This document shows, in pieces, positions 22,305-59,015 of a DNA stretch of 64,000 nt (position 1 is its first letter; every line of letters starts with the position of its first letter). Below the pieces are notes generated by a model that saw nothing but the letters and a program-made list of their open reading frames with translations, did no database searches and had not been told where the DNA came from. The translations under genes and the position numbers were made by a program. The DNA is from a virus, in IMG/VR virus record IMGVR_UViG_3300045988_115788; one strand, written 5' to 3'.

Positions 22305-22994
22305 ATGGGAACTATCATAAATTTAATTGGAAAACGATTTGGAAAATTGTTCGTAGTTGATAAAAGTAAAAAAAGAACAAAAAGTGGTAATGTTTATTGG
22401 ACTTGTCATTGTAAATGTGGAAAATATATTGAAGTAATTGGGACTAACCTAAGAAGAGGTAATACTTCTTCATGCGGATGCGGACTTTTTTCACTAAACA
22501 AATTTGATTTAACACACGAATTTGGAATAGGATATTGTTCAAATGGAACAAAATTTTTATTTGACCTTGAAGATTATGAAAAAATAAAAAATTATAAATG
22601 GCAAGTTGGTTCTAAAGGTTATATAGTTGCAGGTTGCGAAAATGAAAGAAAAAATAAATCAACTATTCGTTTACACCGTTTGGTGATGAACGCACCAAAA
22701 GACAAACAAGTAGACCACAAATTCGGAAATGTCCTCGACAACAGAAAAGAAAATTTAAGAATCGCAACCCCACAGCAAAATTCTATGAATCAAAAAAAGA
22801 GAAAAACAAACAAAAGTGGTTATTCTGGCGTTGGCTATATAAAAGAAACCGGAAAATGGAGAGCGAGTCTTTATTTTAAAAGAAAACATATTTCATTAGG
22901 ATGTTATAAAACCAAAGAAGAAGCTATACAAGCAAGAATACGAGGAGAAGAAAAATTTTTTGGAGAATTTAAGCGCCCAGAAGAATTTAAATAA
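22305..22994 (+). CDS. free-standing HNH-AP2 homing endonuclease
   Basis: HRLVM...VDHK...NRKENLRIATPQQN HNH motif plus AP2-like SGYSGVGYIKETGKWRASLYF...GCYKTKEEA. Confidence 0.8.
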   Translation: MGTIINLIGKRFGKLFVVDKSKKRTKSGNVYWTCHCKCGKYIEVIGTNLRRGNTSSCGCGLFSLNKFDLTHEFGIGYCSNGTKFLFDLEDYEKIKNYKWQVGSKGYIVAGCENERKNKSTIRLHRLVMNAPKDKQVDHKFGNVLDNRKENLRIATPQQNSMNQKKRKTNKSGYSGVGYIKETGKWRASLYFKRKHISLGCYKTKEEAIQARIRGEEKFFGEFKRPEEFK

Positions 22995-26790: not shown

Positions 26791-27498
26791 ATGAAAAAGC
26801 GACGATGTATTGCGGCAGGACTAATTTTAAGTTCTGTATTAACGTTAGGTTGCACAGCAAAAGAAAGTCATTCTGCTGATTATATGGCGGCGATTCAGCA
26901 ATCAGTAAGTGTCGGTGATTTTGATACGGCAAAGCTATATGAATCTGCAAGAAATCAAAAAATTAAAGAACTTGGCCTCAACTATGACACTACTGATTTC
27001 TTTTCTGAGAAAAATGTGACAAAAGTACATGAAAACATACAGAATTATGTGCAAAATGGGTGCAAAGCGCCGCCAACTCAGCCAGAATATGTAAGATATT
27101 TCAGTGATAATGATGTTGCTATGTTGGCTAAAGTAGCTTATTGTGAAGCTAGAGGAATCAAAAGTAAAACTGAAATTGCTTGCGTGATGTGGACAATTCT
27201 TAATAGATATGATGCTGGATATGCAAAAAGCATTAGTGCAGTTATTCTTAGTCCTAACCAATTTGCGTATCGTTCTTCTGCACCAATGGTGAGTGATTAT
27301 GGTTATGACCTTTATGCTCTAGCTTACGATGTGTTGGAAAATTGGAGTAAAGAGCATAGCGGCAGAACTGATGTAGTAAGAGTTCTTCCTAAAGAGTTTA
27401 TGTGGTATGCAGGAAATGGCGTAAGCAACAGATTCAGATGCCATTATCGTTGCGGTCATTATTATCAATATTATTTGGGGTATTATTATGATGCTTAA
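26791..27498 (+). CDS. SleB/CwlJ-like cell-wall hydrolase lipoprotein
   Basis: Lipoprotein signal MKKRRCIAAGLILSSVLTLGC; Hydrolase_2-like LAKVAYCEARG...MWTILNRYD...ILSPNQFAY. Confidence 0.65.
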   Translation: MKKRRCIAAGLILSSVLTLGCTAKESHSADYMAAIQQSVSVGDFDTAKLYESARNQKIKELGLNYDTTDFFSEKNVTKVHENIQNYVQNGCKAPPTQPEYVRYFSDNDVAMLAKVAYCEARGIKSKTEIACVMWTILNRYDAGYAKSISAVILSPNQFAYRSSAPMVSDYGYDLYALAYDVLENWSKEHSGRTDVVRVLPKEFMWYAGNGVSNRFRCHYRCGHYYQYYLGYYYDA

Positions 27499-30451: not shown

Positions 30452-30491
30452 TCAATCATTCCTTTTCATTTAATTTTATTTCATCCAATTT

Positions 30492-31253
30492 TTACCGCGC
30501 TTCTTCTTTTGTTTTAAAGTATCCTAATTCAGGATGTTCAGTAATTTGGTAGAAGCAAAGCTTTGAAATTGGATTTTTATTTTTATTTGGTCTTCTGTTT
30601 TGCATATTTTCTAATTTAGTAACAAGTCTTAGTTTTTCTCTTCGATTATCATTCCTTGCATGATAAATATGGTCAACTTCTAACTCTGGATGCTCTTCAA
30701 GTTTCTCTTCCATTATGAAACGATGCAAAAGCATAATTCTATTGGTTACCCAGCCGCTAGGAAGAACATACCAAGTGTGTTTAGAAACTCTATCATAATC
30801 TTCTGTACTAAAAAAGAAAATATTTCCGTTGGTGTCTGTTCCAATATAATATTTTCCATCAGCAGAAAGAGTAAAAGTATTTTTGCTTTTAAATTTCTTT
30901 CGCCATTGACATGAGCATAATCCAAATTTGTTCTTTTTAATATCTCGTAAAGATGCAACAAAGGTATTGCCACAATCACACTTTACTTTATATCTTTCAG
31001 TGTCAATTTGTTCGATAGTTGTAAAGGTATGATATTTTTTATTGACTTGCGACTCAATAGGATATTTGTCAATAATATATCTCGTTGGTTTCCTGTCAAT
31101 ATGAAAATCACAGATTGCCGCAAGCTGTTCTAGCTGGTTACTCTTTGCTTCTCCTGTTTTTATTTCAATATTTAAAAATTCACATAATTCTTTGTACTTT
31201 AAAGGTTCTTTAGTTTCTGATAATTCTTTTAGTTTAACAAAATTTAACTCCAT
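30492..31253 (-). CDS. HNH endonuclease fused to the regulator-family N-terminal domain
   Basis: N-terminal KEPLKYKELCEFLN...NQLEQLAAICD...KPTRYII; then CDCG...CSC zinc motif and LLHRFIM...VDHIYHARNDNRREKLRLVT..EN HNH. Confidence 0.65.
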   Translation of the reverse strand: MELNFVKLKELSETKEPLKYKELCEFLNIEIKTGEAKSNQLEQLAAICDFHIDRKPTRYIIDKYPIESQVNKKYHTFTTIEQIDTERYKVKCDCGNTFVASLRDIKKNKFGLCSCQWRKKFKSKNTFTLSADGKYYIGTDTNGNIFFFSTEDYDRVSKHTWYVLPSGWVTNRIMLLHRFIMEEKLEEHPELEVDHIYHARNDNRREKLRLVTKLENMQNRRPNKNKNPISKLCFYQITEHPELGYFKTKEEAR

Positions 31254-31790: not shown

Positions 31791-32081
31791 AAATTTTTGA
31801 AAAATATTTGTGTAATTGTCTAGCACACTACGAAAAACGTTTGTTTTTGAAAGGCATTTGCTATAACCAACCCCCTATCATTAACAAATAAGGAACTGAC
31901 ACAAAAAGTGCATGATAACAACTGTTAGACGGTAAACTGGAAAACGTGAAGTGTTATCTATAACTGCCCCCTTGTTATTGAAAAATATTTAAAATTTTGG
32001 AACTTTGTGGTCTGGTGAAAAGGGCAAAAAAGAAATAGAACATTTGTTCTAAAATTGTATTACGTGATTAATACAATTTTG

Positions 32082-32383: not shown

Positions 32384-32600
32384 ATGATGTTTAGTTGTGC
32401 ATTATATACATATTCTTTGTTATTATCTTTATAATCTTTGTTGATATTGACGTTGTTCGTCAATATATACAAGTGCGGCCTTGTGTTGTTGTGCATGTTG
32501 ACTATATCATTATGTTATCATTATACTTATAGTATTGTGATTGGTGCGGCCCTTGGTTAATGTGTTGTGTTTTGTTGTTGTATTTTGTGCAAGTTGGCTA

Positions 32601-32628
32601 TTGCTTTTTGCCGCCGTTCTGATATAAT
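32601..32628 (+). promoter_or_regulatory. promoter of the GC-rich island operon (cassette copy C)
   Basis: TTGCTT-16-TGaTATAAT, preceded by ATTTTGTGCAA (32582-32592). Confidence 0.6.
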
Positions 32629-32702
32629 GGGTACTGTCGAAAGGGCAAGGGCGAAAGCTTTTGAGCGAGTAGGCGGGCACCTTGACAATTAAATAGAACG
32701 CA

Positions 32703-32786
32703 GCAAGGCTCTATCAAAGACTATGTAATTAAGGCTGTCAGATAGTATAGATGCAGGACTATTGGATAGCTGAGATAGAGCCTTGC
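32703..32786 (+). ncRNA. long hairpin in the ~240-nt leader of the island operon
   Basis: Perfect 13-bp closing stem GCAAGGCTCTATC/GATAGAGCCTTGC enclosing 58 nt; lies between promoter and first SD. Confidence 0.45.
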
Positions 32787-32868
32787 AAAATGGGGAAAGG
32801 TTTAATAGAGTATATTAAGTAATGTAATATATTGTATTAAGTCTTTATATCAAAGGAGGATATATATT

Positions 32869-33018
32869 GTGATAAAAAGCATCATTAAGTCTTTCCGCGC
32901 TGATAATAAAAAGCTGGCGGCGGAACACAAAAGGACGATGCAGGAAGCGGAGGCGGCATTGCGGCAGATGAAGGCTGCAATGGATAAAATCGGAACAAGA
33001 AAGGAGCGTTTGTTATGA
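32869..33018 (+). CDS. small coiled-coil protein (49 aa)
   Basis: GTG 8 nt after AAAGGAGGATAT; stop overlaps the next ATG (ATGA). Confidence 0.5.
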   Translation: MIKSIIKSFRADNKKLAAEHKRTMQEAEAALRQMKAAMDKIGTRKERLL

Positions 33019-33221
33019 AAAAGTATAAGTATACAAAAAAACACGCGTAAGAATGTGTAGAAGCCTACGCCCATTTGACGGGGTGGTTTGACGAAAGCAT
33101 AACTCAACGAGAAATGTTTGAGATGCTACGGTACAGGATGCAGTTTGGAGAAGCCGAAAGCCGAGTGATTGTTGCGGCGCTGGTTATGGCAGGAGCAAAA
33201 TTCAAAACAAGCGCAGAGTGA
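33015..33221 (+). pseudogene. small ORF interrupted by an in-frame TAA at codon 12
   Basis: Coupled ATG start, MKKYKYTKKHA-TAA-ECVEAYAHLTGWFDES...KFKTSAE; 56 open codons after the stop lack their own SD or start. Confidence 0.45.
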
Positions 33222-33292
33222 CGGGGGAGCAATCCCCTGGTAATGCGGCTAAGAGTGGTCACAAGCCCACCGCAAAGAAAGGATGGTTTTTT

Positions 33293-33631
33293 ATGACAAA
33301 CACAAAAGAAGAGCTGCGTCGCATGATGCAAGGTATCCGCCATGATTTGGAGCTTGCCTTTGAAGGTGAGCTTAAAAATGAGGACGGGGAGCCAGTAGAC
33401 CTCTGGGAATATCTGGCGGACGGCCTAGCGCTAGATTACCGCGTAGGCCCTGATAAAAGCCCTACTGCGTGCCGCGTGTGGCTTGTGTTGGGTGGGCCTA
33501 ATATCTGGGTGGATACCGAAACGGATTCTATTCACGGCGCTTGGGGGAGCGACAGAGAAGAAATTTATATCAACTCTGAGCTGTCCGATGCTATTTTAGA
33601 TTCTATGACCTTCGATTGGGATTGCTATTGA
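33293..33631 (+). CDS. hypothetical acidic protein
   Basis: Track ORF 33218..33631; first ATG at 33293 (MTNTKEEL...). Confidence 0.55.
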   Translation: MTNTKEELRRMMQGIRHDLELAFEGELKNEDGEPVDLWEYLADGLALDYRVGPDKSPTACRVWLVLGGPNIWVDTETDSIHGAWGSDREEIYINSELSDAILDSMTFDWDCY

Positions 33632-33647
33632 AAGGAGGATATCTACC

Positions 33648-33794
33648 ATGAAAAAATATCTCGCAATCCTGTTGCTGTCTGCCTTGTGTTTTGTCGCAGG
33701 GATTGCGGCAACTGTAGCGGAGGCAATGCCGGAACAGTCAGCAGTTGTTAGCTATTTCAACGGATTGATTGTAAAGGAATATTTCAATCCGTAA
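33648..33794 (+). CDS. small secreted/membrane peptide (48 aa)
   Basis: AAAGGAGGATAT SD; MKKYLAILLLSALCFVAGIAATVAEA signal-like N-terminus. Confidence 0.5.
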   Translation: MKKYLAILLLSALCFVAGIAATVAEAMPEQSAVVSYFNGLIVKEYFNP

Positions 33795-33891
33795 ATATTC
33801 AGCGCCTTTAGTCGTTGGGCTTAAAACGACTAACCAGAGCGCAACATGGCCGCGCATTGAAAAGAGCTATGAGAAAGGAGGATATTTAACA

Positions 33892-34113
33892 ATGGCAAAT
33901 GTCAAGAAGTCTGCAACGTTGGAAGTTGAGGATGTGTTTACTCAACAGGTAAACGCCAACTACAAACGTTGCAAGGAAGCACGGGAGAAGGCCGCAAAAC
34001 AGAGGCAGGAAGAGCTGAAGCGCATGTATCGCAATAGCAAACGTGTCGCAGTGTGGGGCATTGTGGGTTGTATAGCGGTATTGATTGCCGCCTATGCTAT
34101 GTGGTTCATTTAA
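33892..34113 (+). CDS. tail-anchored small membrane protein
   Basis: AAAGGAGGATAT SD; basic coiled N-terminus and C-terminal VAVWGIVGCIAVLIAAYAMWFI helix. Confidence 0.55.
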   Translation: MANVKKSATLEVEDVFTQQVNANYKRCKEAREKAAKQRQEELKRMYRNSKRVAVWGIVGCIAVLIAAYAMWFI

Positions 34114-34126
34114 GGAGGCACATACT

Positions 34127-34525
34127 ATGATAACAAGCATCAATCTAAAGGCACTGAGTGGGGCTATCCTTGCAGCATTGAGCGCCTATATGCCAACGTC
34201 CGTCCCCTGCGTGGTGGACAGGATAGAGCAGGACGGCGGGGATAGAATTGCAGTGGTGGAGATTGCGGACAAGGACACAGGGGACATTCTTTTCTGTGAT
34301 ATTGATAGCGATACATTGGTTGACGATGAACATCTGACCATGCAGCGCTTGTCAGGGGAAGTTGTAGACTGTGAAGCATACGGCGGCAACTGGTATACTG
34401 TGTCTGTAGCAGTAGGGGACGAAATACATTCTGTAGTAGAAGGTATTAGCTATCCTGTGGGCGCTATCGTGTGGGCCTATATGTATAAAGGAAATATGCA
34501 AACTATTGCAGTGCAACACCAGTAA
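34127..34525 (+). CDS. hypothetical acidic protein
   Basis: TAAGGAGG SD before the ATG at 34127 (track ORF starts 34085). Confidence 0.55.
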   Translation: MITSINLKALSGAILAALSAYMPTSVPCVVDRIEQDGGDRIAVVEIADKDTGDILFCDIDSDTLVDDEHLTMQRLSGEVVDCEAYGGNWYTVSVAVGDEIHSVVEGISYPVGAIVWAYMYKGNMQTIAVQHQ

Positions 34526-34540
34526 GGAGGATATTTTGTA

Positions 34541-34981
34541 ATGGGTACTATTAACTACGGAAGCAACTGCACCAATGAGGGCCTTCTCAATATCGGCCTT
34601 AACTTGAACCGGTTTAATTCGCCTATAACAATTATGCGCCGCGCAAATATGATGCGGGAAATCGTTGACGATTATAACGGTACTTGGTTCAAAGTAAACG
34701 TTGAACCAGGATACTACGAGGGCGCGTGGGTCTCCGTTGAATGGGACGAGGATATACTATTCTATAACGGGCCTTGGTCTTTCGAAGAGGTGCGCTCAGA
34801 AATAACGTACTTGAATACGATGCTTCAGCTTTTGGTTAATGCTGGGTGCGTGGAATATTGGCCAGGGTGGTGCACAGGATATAGTACGGCGGCAGAAACG
34901 AGAAAGGCAATTATAGCCAACGTCGAGCGCTTATGGACGTACTACAAAGAAACATATCAGGAGGATGAAGGGGATGATTAA
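34541..34981 (+). CDS. hypothetical protein, acidic C-terminus
   Basis: TAAGGAGGATAT SD; 146 aa ending QEDEGDD. Confidence 0.55.
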   Translation: MGTINYGSNCTNEGLLNIGLNLNRFNSPITIMRRANMMREIVDDYNGTWFKVNVEPGYYEGAWVSVEWDEDILFYNGPWSFEEVRSEITYLNTMLQLLVNAGCVEYWPGWCTGYSTAAETRKAIIANVERLWTYYKETYQEDEGDD

Positions 34982-35138
34982 CAAGAAAGACTTGGAAATT
35001 ATCCTATCTATGGATAATGAACTTGAACGTTTGCGAATGTTTTTCAACAAACGACGTGACAGCCAAGCAGACAAGAGGAAATGGACAGCAGAAAGCAAGC
35101 TGTTCATTAACAAGGTTGAATCAAAGAAAGGAGTATAA
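34974..35138 (+). CDS. small hypothetical protein (54 aa)
   Basis: ATG overlaps the upstream gene end; MINKKDLEIILSMDNELERL... Confidence 0.4.
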   Translation: MINKKDLEIILSMDNELERLRMFFNKRRDSQADKRKWTAESKLFINKVESKKGV

Positions 35139-35143
35139 TTGTT

Positions 35144-35497
35144 ATGGAAAAGTATCTGGTGAACACTTACGGCAATCATTGGGTGGAATGTGACAGCGCA
35201 GAAAGTGCCGCGCAGGAAGTAATCGAAAATGTAGAGGATTGCTATTGGGACGATTTACTTGATGAGGCATGGGGAGAAGTCGAAGTATGCGGTTATACAT
35301 ACTGTGCTTCTCGTGCGTTGTCTCTGATTGATGAGGTAGCTTATAGGTGTGGAAAAAACGATTGGTTAGACGGGGAATATCGGGATATAGTATACAGTCT
35401 CGAAAGAATGATGGACGGCGACGAAGAGGAATATTTCGGGGTAACTGTTCGTTATGAAGAGGTATCCGACAACGAAGAGGAGGAAGAAGATGAATGA
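35144..35497 (+). CDS. highly acidic small protein
   Basis: AAAGGAG SD; 117 aa ending EEVSDNEEEEEDE. Confidence 0.55.
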   Translation: MEKYLVNTYGNHWVECDSAESAAQEVIENVEDCYWDDLLDEAWGEVEVCGYTYCASRALSLIDEVAYRCGKNDWLDGEYRDIVYSLERMMDGDEEEYFGVTVRYEEVSDNEEEEEDE

Positions 35498-35636
35498 TAT
35501 AATTCATTGGAAACTATATGCAGAGTGGTTAGACAACGGTAACTTTTGCGCTGATTTCTTTATGAGTTATGACGAGTTATGGGACAGCTTGTTCAATCCT
35601 GAGCTTGAGCTGCTTACAATAGTTGAGCGCAAGTAA
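35490..35636 (+). CDS. small hypothetical protein (48 aa)
   Basis: ATG at 35490 (MNDIIHW...) overlapping the upstream stop; track ORF starts 35454. Confidence 0.4.
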   Translation: MNDIIHWKLYAEWLDNGNFCADFFMSYDELWDSLFNPELELLTIVERK

Positions 35637-35649
35637 CCATTAAATATAG

Positions 35650-35680
35650 GCTAGGGTATTTTATCCTAGCTTATATTTTT
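35650..35680 (+). terminator. possible terminator ending the island operon
   Basis: GCTAGGG tatttta TCCTAGC hairpin then TTATATTTTT. Confidence 0.45.
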
Positions 35681-35908
35681 ATACTTATATTTGTTAATAA
35701 CAATTATATCAATTTGCATCTGGTACCATATAACGCAGCCCAGCATCTCAAAACAAGGGCCTAGAATCGTCTGTACTGCGTTGTAATGTATTGGGCAGGG
35801 TAGTTATAGCCATAGTGCAAAGTGGCCCTTGTGGCGCGTTCTGGAGGCTGTCAGGAGGTGTTGGATAAATTGCATAAAAAAGCAAAATAATTTTGTGCAA
35901 TTTGATTA

Positions 35909-37439: not shown

Positions 37440-38120
37440 ATGATTGTTATTTTAAAAGATTTAACAGGAAAGCGCTTCGGACGTTTATTTGTTGTTGGCC
37501 CTGCTCCCAGAAAGAATAATCGAACTGCTTGGCGTTGTAGATGTAATTGTGGAAACTATACAGATGTTTTAACTCGCAATTTAACAACAGGAAACACAAA
37601 GTCTTGTCGTTGCCTTGAAAAAGATGTTTTTAAACCTAATTTATATTCTTTAGGAGATAAAGTTAGCATAGGTTATTGTGCAAATGGGAGAATTTTTCTT
37701 TTTGATACCGAAGACTATGACAGAATTAAAAAATATAAATGGCGCTCAAATAAAAAAGGATATATTTCAACTCAAATCAACGGAAGAACAACAAGTTTAC
37801 ATCGTTTTATTTTGAACGTGGACAAAGAAAAAGAAGTTGACCATATCGAAGGAAAACCCTGGGACAACCGAAAAGAAAAACTACGAATCGTAACTCATCA
37901 AGAGAATATGATGAATAGAAAAAAGTCTGCTAGAAATTCAACTGGTGTTACAGGGGTTAGCATTGATAAAGACACAGGAAAATTTCGTTCTGAAATTTAT
38001 TATAATGGGAAGAAGTATTCGTTAGGTCGCTTCAAAACTTTGGAAGAAGCAAAACGAGTAAGAATACAAGCAGAAGAAGAATTTTTTAAAGACTACGCTA
38101 GGAAGGAAGAGTTTAGATGA
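37440..38120 (+). CDS. free-standing HNH-AP2 homing endonuclease (paralog of 22305..22994)
   Basis: WRCRCNCG...SCRC, LHRFIL...VDHIEGKPWDNRKEKLRIVTHQEN, AP2-like TGVTGVSIDKDTGKFRSEIYY. Confidence 0.8.
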   Translation: MIVILKDLTGKRFGRLFVVGPAPRKNNRTAWRCRCNCGNYTDVLTRNLTTGNTKSCRCLEKDVFKPNLYSLGDKVSIGYCANGRIFLFDTEDYDRIKKYKWRSNKKGYISTQINGRTTSLHRFILNVDKEKEVDHIEGKPWDNRKEKLRIVTHQENMMNRKKSARNSTGVTGVSIDKDTGKFRSEIYYNGKKYSLGRFKTLEEAKRVRIQAEEEFFKDYARKEEFR

Positions 38121-39070: not shown

Positions 39071-39147
39071 GGGCCTTTAGCTCAGTTGGTTAGAGCCTCC
39101 AGCTCATAACTGGAAGGTCGTGGTTTCGATTACCACAGGGCCCACCA
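39071..39147 (+). tRNA. tRNA with CAU anticodon (Met or lysidine-Ile), canonical cloverleaf, encoded CCA
   Basis: GGGCCTT/AGGGCCC acceptor, GCTC-AGTTGGTTA-GAGC D arm, loop CTCATAA, GTGGT-TTCGATT-ACCAC T arm. Confidence 0.85.
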
Positions 39148-39148
39148 T

Positions 39149-39223
39149 TGCGGGTTGAGTGTTGGCGCTCCGCTTGGTCTCATAAGCCAAGTTACCTCAG
39201 TTCGATTCTGGGACTCGCTTCCA
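39149..39223 (+). tRNA. second CAU-anticodon tRNA-like gene with non-canonical D region
   Basis: Identical loop CTCATAA, T arm CTCAG-TTCGATT-CTGGG, encoded CCA; U1:U72 mismatch; D region folds as 5-bp stem + TTGG loop. Confidence 0.55.
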
Positions 39224-39375
39224 CCCCATTTCAGCCACAATGACCTACGGGCTCGTGGCTGAAATGTTAAAACTTGTATCTACGCTGAAACTGTGCAAGC
39301 TCCTAACTCTTCGAGAAGGATGAAGGTGATTCAGCTCAAAGTTGGCAGTCTTTGAGAAGTTAAAACTGCCTCTAT

Positions 39376-39450
39376 ACTGGTGTAGCTCAATTGGTAGAGC
39401 GACTGCCTTGTAGCAGCAGGTCGGGGGGTCGAGTCCGTCCACCAGCTCCA
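39376..39450 (+). tRNA. tRNA-Thr(UGU)-like gene with aberrant anticodon arm
   Basis: D arm TAGCTCAATTGGTAGAGC and CTTGTA loop core resemble Firmicute tRNA-Thr; loop is 6 nt (or 9 in alternative fold); A1:C72 mismatch; encoded CCA. Confidence 0.5.
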
Positions 39451-39613
39451 GCGCAGATTGTTGAGTGATTTAACTGCGTGTAAACAAAAATAAAATCACA
39501 TTGCAAAAAGATTTTCCTTCGGGAGTAGCCAAAGATATGTTAGAGATAAGTATTTTTGGCGATTAAGCAAATCTGTTTGCGGTAAGCAGGGTATGAACCA
39601 AAAACCGCTTTAT

Positions 39614-39693
39614 GGCAAAGGTGATGTAACAGCAAACCATCTTAGTTTTGCGATGACTAAGTTATGCGGGTTGGAGTCCCGCCCTTGCCGCCA
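39614..39693 (+). tRNA. tRNA-like gene, anticodon GCG (Arg) in best fold
   Basis: Acceptor GGCAAAG/CCTTGCC (one mismatch), D stem GATG/CATC, loop TTGCGAT, T arm GCGGG-TTGGAGT-CCCGC, encoded CCA; lacks D-loop GG, has G at T-loop position 56. Confidence 0.45.
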
Positions 39694-40326: not shown

Positions 40327-40445
40327 ACAGAGAAATTGCAATCTTGAGGTGTCGTTACACCTGTATGTTGTGGAGGGTTACACAAACTTGAGTAGCTTTG
40401 GCGAAAGAGAATCCAATGAAACAGTAAGTTGATTTTTAATTAACA
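40327..40445 (+). ncRNA. omega-RNA-like right end of the TnpB remnant
   Basis: Structured tail; CACAAACTTGAGTAGCTTTGGC is homologous to 58910-58936 downstream of the other remnant. Confidence 0.4.
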
Positions 40446-42974: not shown

Positions 42975-43229
42975 ATGATTGTCGAGTCCGATAATCGTTG
43001 CGAGTTTTGCGGCAAAAAGATGTTGACTCAAATTTATAAGGAATCTTATGGAGAGTATAACATGTTTGATTTTTGTCCTGATTGCGACGGCAGACCTGGT
43101 GGAATGGCTTACCTCAAAGTGGCGTCAAAGCCCCCTTGTTTCAGCTATGGGGATATAAGTCACACTGTGTTCCATGTAGTTAAGGGAACGCAGTTTTGCA
43201 GTAAATTTGCATCAGATGGAGTGCAGTAG
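42975..43229 (+). CDS. small zinc-ribbon protein whose 3' end runs into the IS
   Basis: ATG at 42975 after GAAGGTGGTGG; CEFCG...CPDCD ribbon; sequence past ~43090 is GC-rich IS DNA, so the C-terminus is probably IS-derived. Confidence 0.45.
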   Translation: MIVESDNRCEFCGKKMLTQIYKESYGEYNMFDFCPDCDGRPGGMAYLKVASKPPCFSYGDISHTVFHVVKGTQFCSKFASDGVQ

Positions 43230-43280
43230 TATAATATTGCTATAGAATTTAAGAGCAACAACATTATGTGAGGTGTCGAG

Positions 43281-44399
43281 ATGGAATACAGCTATAGGTT
43301 TCGTATCTATCCCAGTATCGCACAAGCGCAACAGATACGCCGGACATTTGGATGCTGTCGCTTTGTCTGGAATCACTATCTTTCGCAGCGAATAGAAGCA
43401 TACAGGGAAACAGGAAAGTCTCTTACACGATTCATGCAAGACAAAAATCTAACGTCCCTGAAGAAACAGGAGGAAACCATTTGGCTACGAGAAGTTGATG
43501 CCACGGCCTTGCAGTCCTCTCTACGGGATTTGGATATAGCTTATCGAAACTTCTTTCGGCGCGTCAAAAAGAGGGAGAAGCCCGGTTATCCAAAATTCAA
43601 AAGCAAGAAAAATCATCGGCAAAGCTATAAGAGCAAATGCGTTGGCAACAACATTAAAGTATTAGAAGGGGCTGTACAACTCCCTAAGCTAGGTAAGGTA
43701 AAATGCCAGGTCAGCAAGCATGTAGAGGGACGTATTCTGTCCGCAACCGTTAGCCAGACCCCAAGCGGAAAATACTTTGTAGCCCTGTGCTGTACAGATG
43801 TTGATATGGAGCCGCTACCATCTACAGGGGCAGCGGTCGGCATCGACATGGGGTTAAAAGCACTTGCAATTACCTCCGATGGTGTGGAGTATCCGAACCA
43901 TAAGCATCTATCCAAGAGCCAGAAGGAACTTACAAAACTCCAACGGAAACTCTCCCGAAAAACAAAGGGGAGTAACCGCTGGGATAAGGCAAAGCAAAAG
44001 GTTGCACGGCTATATGAACGGATTACAAACCAAAGAAAGGACACGTTACACAAGCTTTCCACAAAGCTCATTCGTGAAAATGATATTATTTGCATAGAAA
44101 ATTTGGCTGTCAAGAATATGGTCAAGAATCATAATTTAGCAAGAGCTATTGCAGATGCTTCATGGGGCGAGTTTCGTAGACAACTAACCTATAAAGCAAA
44201 ATGGTATGGTCGAAAGTTAGTCGTTATAGACAGATTCTATCCTTCCAGTCAGATTTGCTCTGCTTGCGGTGCAAAGTGGCCTGGAACAAAGGATTTGTCC
44301 GTTCGGGAGTGGACTTGCCCAAAGTGCAGCACGGTACATGATAGAGATGTTAATGCGGCAAAGAATATTCTAGCAGAAGGACTTCGCATGTTGGCATAA
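43281..44399 (+). CDS. tnpB: TnpB RNA-guided endonuclease (intact)
   Basis: MEYSYRFRIYPSIAQAQ N-terminus; RuvC D (VGIDMG), E (ICIENL), Zn ribbon CSACG...CPKCS, RuvC D (HDRDVNAAKNI). Confidence 0.9.
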   Translation: MEYSYRFRIYPSIAQAQQIRRTFGCCRFVWNHYLSQRIEAYRETGKSLTRFMQDKNLTSLKKQEETIWLREVDATALQSSLRDLDIAYRNFFRRVKKREKPGYPKFKSKKNHRQSYKSKCVGNNIKVLEGAVQLPKLGKVKCQVSKHVEGRILSATVSQTPSGKYFVALCCTDVDMEPLPSTGAAVGIDMGLKALAITSDGVEYPNHKHLSKSQKELTKLQRKLSRKTKGSNRWDKAKQKVARLYERITNQRKDTLHKLSTKLIRENDIICIENLAVKNMVKNHNLARAIADASWGEFRRQLTYKAKWYGRKLVVIDRFYPSSQICSACGAKWPGTKDLSVREWTCPKCSTVHDRDVNAAKNILAEGLRMLA

Positions 44400-44532
44400 A
44401 CTTAATTTTTACAGTAGGGTGGGACACACCCAAACATATACGCTCGTGGAGATTGTGTGAGACCCGCCTATTTGGTGGGCTACGGTCAGCGAACCGAGAA
44501 TCCCCTGTCTTTAGGTGTGGGGAGTGTCAAAA
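44400..44532 (+). ncRNA. omega RNA scaffold (3' portion) of the TnpB element
   Basis: GC-rich structured region directly after tnpB, e.g. GGTGGGACACACC and CCCCTGTCTTTAGGTGTGGGG hairpins, ending at the GC/AT boundary. Confidence 0.55.
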
Positions 44533-44577
44533 GAAGAATATTATAAAAATGATGATTGATAAAAGGAGAAATATTTA

Positions 44578-58841: not shown

Positions 58842-59015
58842 CATAACACTTTCAAGTTATTACAGATATGTACTGATATGTTAGTCAGGAATTTACGCCT
58901 ATGGAGAGCACAAGAACTTGTGAGTAGTGATTGGCTTGTCAACACAAAAACATACTCGTTGAAGTAGGAATGGAACATAAAAGTTTATAACTTTTTATAA
59001 GTTTTCAGTAACGGA
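58842..59015 (+). ncRNA. omega-RNA-like tail of the truncated TnpB, abutting the dnaE start
   Basis: CACAAGAACTTGTGAGTAGTGATTGGC is homologous to the tail of the 40074 remnant; ends a few nt before the ATG at 59022. Confidence 0.4.

Follow-up and report, generated by a model that had tools for sequence, protein, structure and literature searches.

A GC-rich operon of ten small genes with a twister ribozyme in a large human-gut phage: a variable accessory module with a probable early, host-directed role

Within a stretch of 64,000 nucleotides of viral DNA (IMG/VR record IMGVR_UViG_3300045988_115788; the whole stretch is called the window throughout), which represents a large tailed phage of approximately 35.7% GC, positions 32869-35636 constitute a GC-rich island of ten small genes, designated g1 to g10. 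The island is best explained as a variable accessory operon of this phage lineage that most likely serves an early, host-directed role, a reading to which a probability of roughly 0.6 is assigned. The ten genes encode proteins of 48-146 aa and form, as an earlier reading of the sequence alone (the sequence-only reading) had proposed, a tightly packed plus-strand operon extending from a promoter to a hairpin, while a self-cleaving ribozyme between g2 and g3 had been overlooked. The locus is of value for its clean architecture with natural ribozyme variants, for a composition at equilibrium and for two widespread protein families whose folds had not been recognised.

Five related contigs span the locus, namely L010, L011, L012 and L013, which are IMG/VR records from one metagenome, and L018, a 122.8-kb Hadza contig, and in all five the island is found at the same place and in synteny. 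Nucleotide identity to the relatives is roughly alike in island and flanks, at 84-91% in the island and around 90-95% in much of the flanking DNA. The window and all four IMG/VR relatives have eight of the ten gene families in common (g1, g3, g4, g5, g7, g8, g9 and g10), and L018 displays the same gene order with matching gene sizes. On the other hand, g2 together with its ribozyme, and equally g6, are variably present, some genomes have further small genes inserted, and L012 and L011 have one additional gene between the operon leader and g1. A check for presence/absence polymorphism, as suggested by the sequence-only reading, consequently did not find the block as a whole missing from any of the five relatives; it is single genes that are swapped. 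The nearest virus record, G001 (contig L001; 106 kb, 88% complete), is uninformative with respect to the presence of the island because its contig ends correspond to window positions 30477 and 38669.

With 45.8% GC as compared to 35.3% for the rest of the window, the island is the 2.8-kb stretch of highest GC content, approximately 3.5 standard deviations above the mean of sliding windows of the same size. Equally, the GC content at third codon positions (GC3) ranges from 0.42 to 0.56 (about 0.5) in the ten island genes versus 0.24 to 0.31 (about 0.27) in nine backbone genes, and codon choice in the island versus the backbone is shifted towards CGC (0.31 versus 0.07), CTG (0.22 versus 0.07), CAG (0.68 versus 0.31) and TTC (0.60 versus 0.18) and away from AGA (0.12 versus 0.49), such that windowed GC, GC3 and codon usage alike bear out the compositional contrast that had been noticed by eye. 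Singleton changes in the island, polarised by majority among the small sample of 5-6 genomes, are balanced, with 123 GC>AT and 125 AT>GC changes and an implied equilibrium GC of 0.45 next to an actual value of 0.44; in the right flank, analysed as a control, the implied and the actual GC are both 0.35. Synonymous divergence (dS) to the relatives reaches 0.2-0.95 while the GC3 of the island remains high, and genes newly inserted into the islands of the relatives are GC-rich as well. The composition of the island is a stable, maintained property of the operon across the lineage and not the scar of a recent transfer. A strong GC island at compositional equilibrium calls for caution against reading all such islands as recent horizontal transfer.

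The sequence-only reading had suggested for the island an acquisition by recombination from another mobile element or a higher-GC host, and the most direct form of this explanation is that the island arrived recently from a higher-GC phage, plasmid or host and has not yet drifted to the composition of the phage. The sharp contrast in GC content and codon usage would suit such an arrival, HNH genes of the homing type flank the region, and a true recent insertion in the window, a TnpB element at 43111-44533, is likewise GC-rich and absent from G001. As a recent event, acquisition is nevertheless very unlikely, with synteny in five of five relatives, balanced GC>AT and AT>GC singletons and an unchanged GC3 at dS values of up to 0.95. 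Furthermore, no donor was found: blastn of the island DNA against 50,697 phage records gave no match, close homologues of g3, g7 and g9 were found in this phage clade only (g3 homologues comprise this clade and a few distant ones), and in 59 other viral contigs the GC content of the g7 homologues is on average 4 points below that of their surroundings. The sequence-only reading had also named ordinary conserved phage functions together with synteny in all relatives as evidence that would speak against it; the synteny was found, whereas the ordinary conserved phage functions were not. High GC may instead be maintained because selection acts on codon usage or on properties of the nucleic acid, or because genes are steadily exchanged with a pool richer in GC. 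A possible, if tentative, account along these lines considers the island as a set of codon-tuned early genes, in which selection keeps GC and codon bias for efficient translation by the unmodified tRNA pool of the host, or for escape from AT-directed nucleases or silencers, with the rest of the genome following an AT-biased mutation pressure of the phage. Codons such as CTG, CAG, CGC, AGC, TTC and AAC are typical of mid-GC Clostridia. The island prefers precisely these codons, carries the strongest ribosome sites of the window, has its composition at equilibrium despite high synonymous divergence and receives new genes in the relatives that are GC-rich too. However, the CGC/CGU codons in which the island is enriched are read by a tRNA-Arg(GCG) that the phage itself encodes, and the same pattern would result if genes were repeatedly imported from a GC-rich pool. 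A search of 400 Clostridia genomes for a near-identical copy of the insertion sequence, which would have pointed to the host, found none.

By its architecture, the operon would be a single transcription unit read by the host. A promoter cassette on the plus strand at 32583-32628 consists of the box TTTTGTGCAAGTTG (32583-32596), the -35-like element TTGCTT (32601-32606), a 16-nt spacer and the extended -10 element TGaTATAAT (32620-32628); it is conserved in five relatives, and the box is found again at 35891 and 36819. The cassette would act as a host-type promoter of the sigma-A, extended -10 class. It is followed by a non-coding leader of approximately 230 nt (32636-32868, plus strand), for which RNAfold predicts a long hairpin pairing 32705-32717 with 32776-32788. 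Conservation of the leader reaches 94% across five phages, its hairpin displays one compensatory and one wobble change in the relatives, and no match was obtained in Rfam. The sequence-only reading had described a uniform ribosome-binding word ahead of several genes; the word holds true and is restricted to the island, with coordinates that had been off by 1-6 nt. In fact, the word AAGGAGGATAT occurs in four copies in the 64 kb (32853, 33632, 33875 and 34524), each located 5-6 nt before an island start codon, with 0.04 copies expected by chance, and AAGGAGG sites are exclusive to the island within the window. The uniform site is kept in the relatives, also ahead of the genes inserted there. 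Overlaps of stop and start codons, equally predicted before, can be read from the sequence at g1/g2, g7/g8 and g9/g10. The operon ends at a terminator-like 17-bp hairpin with a subsequent T-rich tail (35642-35678, plus strand) that is conserved in the relatives. From these features a strong expression of the ten genes, an active promoter and an early timing are inferred; as each gene possesses a near-perfect Shine-Dalgarno site, the machinery of the host could read the operon at once.

Relatives carry an additional module 3' of this hairpin (L010 9670-10028; L013 9699-10054; L011 4483-4549; L018 7715-7771). It comprises a small gene, a second type-P5 twister ribozyme and a gene for a product of 64-67 aa (MKKYKVYDLYEG...), to which L010, L011 and L013 add a type II hammerhead ribozyme and another small gene. 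The window is devoid of this module and its sequence joins directly at around 35676-35696.

The twister class of self-cleaving ribozymes was reportedly described by Roth and colleagues in 2014. By its sequence, the element on the plus strand at 33212-33270, between g2 and g3, is a twister of type P5 (Rfam RF02684), the one element with a firm identity in the island: a local search aligns it to model positions 1-58 of 58 with 62.1 bits as compared to a gathering score of 37.6 (E 8e-13). In the core segments GCAGAG, UAAUGCGGC, AAGA, GGUC and CAAGCCC every conserved position is matched according to cmscan, and the core is invariant in the six copies of the clade, which represent two variants whose P1 stems differ by three compensatory pairs (GC to CG), with P2 and P4 invariant. 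Across the helices P1, P2 and P4, 90% of the alignment cells are paired versus at most 51% in slid controls, and the loop nucleotides that form the double pseudoknot (T1 and T2) are conserved. The stop codon TGA of g2 (33219-33221) is located inside the ribozyme core, and the 3' end of the ribozyme passes directly into the Shine-Dalgarno site (AAAGAAAGGA) and the ATG of g3. By analogy with the known architecture of twisters, cleavage is predicted between U33241 and A33242. The predicted upstream product would have its 3' end 2 nt past the GC-rich P1 hairpin, which folds there; the predicted downstream product begins 51 nt before the start codon of g3 and its structure is not beyond chance, so that the ribosome site of g3 would be free.

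Within the clade, the unit of twister and ribosome-binding site is found ahead of three different genes, and in L010, L013 and L018 it occurs also, or instead, 3' of the island hairpin. A pattern scan did not find the exact unit outside this phage clade. Twisters have previously been described between small genes of phages (PMC6765202), and as there, the element is on the sense strand between genes, matches over its full length with P1, P2 and P4 present and shows covariation in P1. Distinct from the known phage twisters are the g2 stop codon inside the core and the fusion of the 3' end with the ribosome site of g3, which creates a portable twister-ribosome site unit; equally distinct is the copy number, with a single copy in the window and one or two in the relatives, there accompanied by the type II hammerhead. 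Splitting polycistronic transcripts into RNAs of different stability or translation has been proposed as a role of bacterial and phage twisters, but is unproven, and the role of self-cleaving ribozymes in phages is an open question (PMC6765202); a literature search on gene families associated with twister or hammerhead ribozymes gave no useful result. The locus can serve as a convenient test bed for transcript splitting because it is compact, with one promoter, one twister and one terminator, and because natural variants lack, move or duplicate the ribozyme.

Taken together as a proposed course of events, the sigma-A-type promoter would drive the long structured leader and subsequently the ten small genes, and the twister would cut the polycistronic RNA in two. 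Cleavage would leave the upstream piece (leader, g1 and g2) with a 2',3'-cyclic phosphate 2 nt past the P1 hairpin, and the downstream piece (g3-g10) with a 5'-OH end 51 nt ahead of g3 and an unstructured ribosome site, so that the two halves could have separate stabilities and translation. As infection begins, the proteins would act on the host cell in host takeover, counter-defence or exclusion, and the genes would be exchanged at the conserved junctions provided by the ribosome sites and the twister.

All ten genes are located on the plus strand. The first, g1 (32869-33018), encodes a basic protein of 49 aa (isoelectric point (pI) 10.4), starts with GTG behind AAGGAGGATAT and is present in five of five relatives, with a ratio of nonsynonymous to synonymous substitution rates (dN/dS) of 0.09-0.16. 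Its neighbour g2 (33015-33221) has 68 codons in the relatives (MKKYKYTKKHARECVE...) according to alignment with L012 and L013, and is disrupted in the window, where a residual open reading frame extends over 33075-33221: an in-frame TAA (33048-33050) replaces the CGA (Arg) of the relatives, which leaves g2 either a fresh pseudogene or a gene with a new start at TTG 33075 that has no ribosome site. Downstream of the twister, g3 (33293-33631; 112 aa, pI 4.1, dN/dS 0.05-0.18) has its start codon confirmed by L010, in which the same ATG directly follows g1. The two subsequent genes encode putative membrane proteins, g4 (33648-33794; 48 aa), whose N-terminus forms a signal-like or transmembrane segment, and g5 (33892-34113; a basic protein of 73 aa), which carries a hydrophobic anchor at its C-terminus, both with a dN/dS of 0.02-0.11; the signal peptide and the tail anchor claimed for them previously are visible as hydrophobic segments in the translations. 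The accessory g6 (34127-34525; 132 aa, pI 4.1, dN/dS 0.06-0.11), present in four of six genomes, has a hydrophobic N-terminus. The acidic g7 (34541-34981; 146 aa) is followed by the basic g8 (34974-35138; 54 aa, or 57 aa with a start at 34965; dN/dS 0.03-0.06), the very acidic g9 (35144-35497; 117 aa) with 36 Asp and Glu versus 7 Lys and Arg residues and the tail EEVSDNEEEEEDE, and the acidic g10 (35490-35636; 48 aa, dN/dS 0.05-0.11). 

Over the nine genes that could be tested, dN/dS relative to the relatives amounts to 0.02-0.21, and these genes consequently encode constrained proteins. Strongly acidic with a pI of 4.05-4.30 are g3, g6, g7, g9 and g10, mildly acidic are g2 and g4, and basic are g1, g5 and g8, and thus the very acidic products with acidic tails recognised by the sequence-only reading are real. 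Its statement that none of the products belongs to a recognisable family stands as well: searches of the ten proteins against Pfam, PHROGs, NCBIfam and PADLOC gave nothing above noise except for a weak match of g9, a member of a family of small acidic proteins, to phrog_9396.

Two of these products, g7 and g9, open up families that are common in the mobile elements of the human gut and are placed where genes for entry and counter-defence usually reside; both fold well in models, and have neither a match in the family libraries searched nor a solved structural relative. The g7 family, with the motifs MGTINY, EPGYYEG and PGWCTGYS, is sharply conserved; 77 homologues were found, and the family is present in at least 59 other IMG/VR contigs. 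An AlphaFold2 model of g7 reaches a predicted local distance difference test (pLDDT) score of 86 and a predicted template modelling (pTM) score of 0.83, and Foldseek searches with it against PDB and BFVD gave no match at E<=0.001. Equally, no match in Pfam was obtained for the g7 and g9 families, and sequence searches of PDB with g7, g9 and a g9 profile found nothing. Other gut viral contigs carry the homologues of g7 in operons of small genes, which frequently converge with a small terminase gene or adjoin a resolvase, and the recurrent neighbours of the homologues are almost all unannotated; in an integrative element (L025), a g7 homologue is part of an operon with a true ArdA gene at its head (E 2.7e-35) and FtsK/SpoIIIE at its end. 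The commonest immediate upstream neighbour of g7 homologues is a family of approximately 115 aa (M..YTFE.dGk.Y.RI.K..A...Y...), found at 15 viral loci (e.g. L088 2931-3287). By eye, its N-terminal pattern resembles the tandem gene pair inserted in the island of L013 (6821-7445), and this resemblance hints at a recurring gene pair.

The g9 family is larger, with 630 cluster representatives at E<=1e-3, proteins of approximately 110 aa with acidic tails. The AlphaFold2 model of g9 (pLDDT 93, pTM 0.81) predicts a compact alpha/beta domain whose acidic tail is disordered, for which Foldseek against PDB gave no match at E<=0.001. Solved DNA mimics were matched by neither the g7 nor the g9 model, with anti-CRISPR and Gam entries appearing at E>1 only. 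The g9 domain is also found inside multidomain proteins of 712-867 aa, two of three scanned, the 712-aa protein included, with DUF3849, and the one whose locus was examined stands at the head of an operon with FtsK/SpoIIIE; a further apparent fusion, P0198 (2358 aa), was rejected as a HYR-repeat protein with a spurious match. Free-standing homologues of g9 adjoin FtsK or ParB genes, with FtsK adjacency in two elements. The g7 and g9 families do not co-occur in the 59 other viral contigs. To judge from gene neighbourhoods, both families would suit a role during the entry of a mobile element into a cell.

The host-directed role could take a more specific form. In an anti-defence cassette, the view taken by the sequence-only reading, the acidic g3, g6, g7, g9 and g10 would be DNA mimics or other inhibitors of defence that are made first after entry of the DNA. 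Their pI of 4.05-4.30, the poly-Glu tail of g9, the g7 homologue in the ArdA-led operon, the g9 domain within the 712-aa DUF3849 protein and beside FtsK/SpoIIIE genes of mobile elements, and a variable gene content as predicted by an arms race all speak for it. As an account of the whole operon it is nonetheless doubtful: acidity by itself is weak evidence, selection is strongly purifying (dN/dS 0.09-0.21) with no sign of rapid adaptive change, the confident models of g7 and g9 lack a significant match to a solved structure, and no match of note to Pfam, PHROG, NCBIfam or PADLOC families or to ArdA was found, with none of the ten proteins matching ArdA (PF07275) even at E<=1. Counter-defence would plausibly be a subset of the broader early, host-directed role. 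That g4, g5, possibly g6 and partners constitute a module for superinfection exclusion that alters the envelope to block other phages, or prepares lysis, is improbable: the signal-like N-terminus of g4, the C-terminal anchor of g5 and the hydrophobic N-terminus of g6 would suit such a module, and all three genes are under strong constraint, but hydrophobic segments are found in only three of the ten products, no match of g4, g5 or g6 to a holin, a spanin or a known exclusion protein was obtained, and the endolysin-like gene (26791-27498) is far away. A bolder synthesis, which we regard as unlikely, would combine two translational regimes in one genome, an early operon selected for host-like GC and codons and an AT-rich backbone, with the twister-ribosome site unit and AAGGAGGATAT as standard plug-in junctions for new small genes, and with g7 and g9 as founders of two widespread new-fold families of 'entry' proteins that disarm host defences.

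The reading of the island as a variable accessory operon with an early, host-directed role has its own weak points. The early timing derives from the sequences of promoter and ribosome sites only, and among characterised proteins of host takeover or anti-defence no match to an island protein was found. Of approximately 70 contexts of g7, a single one contains ArdA, and most are unannotated small-gene operons near a small terminase gene. Ribozyme and genes are not a fixed unit, as no ribozyme was found near g7 homologues in 20 other contigs. Finally, the equilibrium test, with its 5-6 genomes and majority polarisation, may be compatible with recombination with a hidden GC-rich pool.

Among known systems, the closest in organisation is the host-takeover module of Bacillus phage SPO1, which comprises genes 37-60 and was reportedly described by Stewart et al. 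in 1998. Both harbour many very small genes of no known family behind a host-type early promoter and unusually strong Shine-Dalgarno sites, and both lie apart from the genes for replication and structure of a large lytic phage of Firmicutes. The two have no sequence similarity, however. The SPO1 module is not known to contain a ribozyme or to show a GC contrast, whereas the island has both. The SPO1 module lies in the terminal redundancy; around the island, the contig breaks of several assemblies fall at inconsistent positions. With the DNA mimics T7 Ocr and ArdA (PF07275), the island shares small, very acidic proteins that are probably made first after entry of the DNA, but the ten proteins do not match them in sequence, nor g7 and g9 in fold, and the model of g9 is not an elongated DNA-like dimer. 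Equally, the island resembles the hypervariable accessory slots, the moron or cargo hotspots, of phages and prophages of gut Clostridia, in which boundaries and regulatory DNA are fixed and single small genes are swapped, added or lost, and elsewhere homologues of g7 adjoin resolvase and small terminase genes; unlike such slots, the island has eight of ten families common to the window and the four IMG/VR relatives and resides in a large genome of virulent type, not in a prophage. For conjugative elements and phages, Iyer and co-workers reportedly described multidomain 'polyvalent' proteins in 2017. These proteins have a counterpart in the g9 domain as one module of the 712-867 aa proteins elsewhere; g9 itself is, in contrast, a free-standing protein of 117 aa, and delivery together with the DNA is not implied.

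Besides the island, the window encodes PhoH, an ATP-dependent DNA ligase, a dCMP deaminase, a DnaB-like helicase, a Sak4-like annealing protein and several HNH endonucleases. The sole matches of its DNA in a phage collection are short, at approximately 70% identity, and to Enterocloster phages, and identical or near-identical proteins are encoded on contigs of approximately 122-125 kb from human gut metagenomes, Hadza samples included. Protein matches place around 40 contigs of 100-125 kb in this clade. The phage is a human-gut phage with a genome of roughly 122 kb, and its host is likely a gut member of the Clostridia. Not only G001 but also other assemblies break near the island, at 31970, around 36300 and around 41990, with positions that are inconsistent among assemblies; strain-level hypervariability is probably the reason, a terminal repeat being a less likely one.

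HNH endonuclease genes are situated at 22305-22994, which is missing from G001, at 30492-31253 on the minus strand and at 37440-38120. The last two bracket the putative early region in opposite orientation and share an inverted similarity of 58 nt (30593-30650 and 37863-37920). These homing-type elements may drive local mosaicism. The TnpB element (43111-44533) is an insertion relative to G001, which joins 43111 straight to 44533, and contains a GC-rich gene for an IS200/IS605-type, TnpB-like transposase (43281-44399; phrog_506, E 1e-139); no near-identical copy of the element was found in 400 sampled Clostridia genomes. Two further matches, at 40367-40427 (55 bits) and 58898-58970 (68 bits), are to the RAGATH-18 RNA, a motif that is the guide-RNA scaffold of IS607-type TnpB nucleases (PMC11061315), and by their sequence look like remnants of TnpB-associated RNAs. 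Finally, a tRNA cluster (39071-39693) is located behind two near-identical consensus promoters (38697 and 39012); ARAGORN assigns it two tRNAs for Met and one for Arg(GCG), and Rfam backs those at 39071-39144 and 39376-39447.

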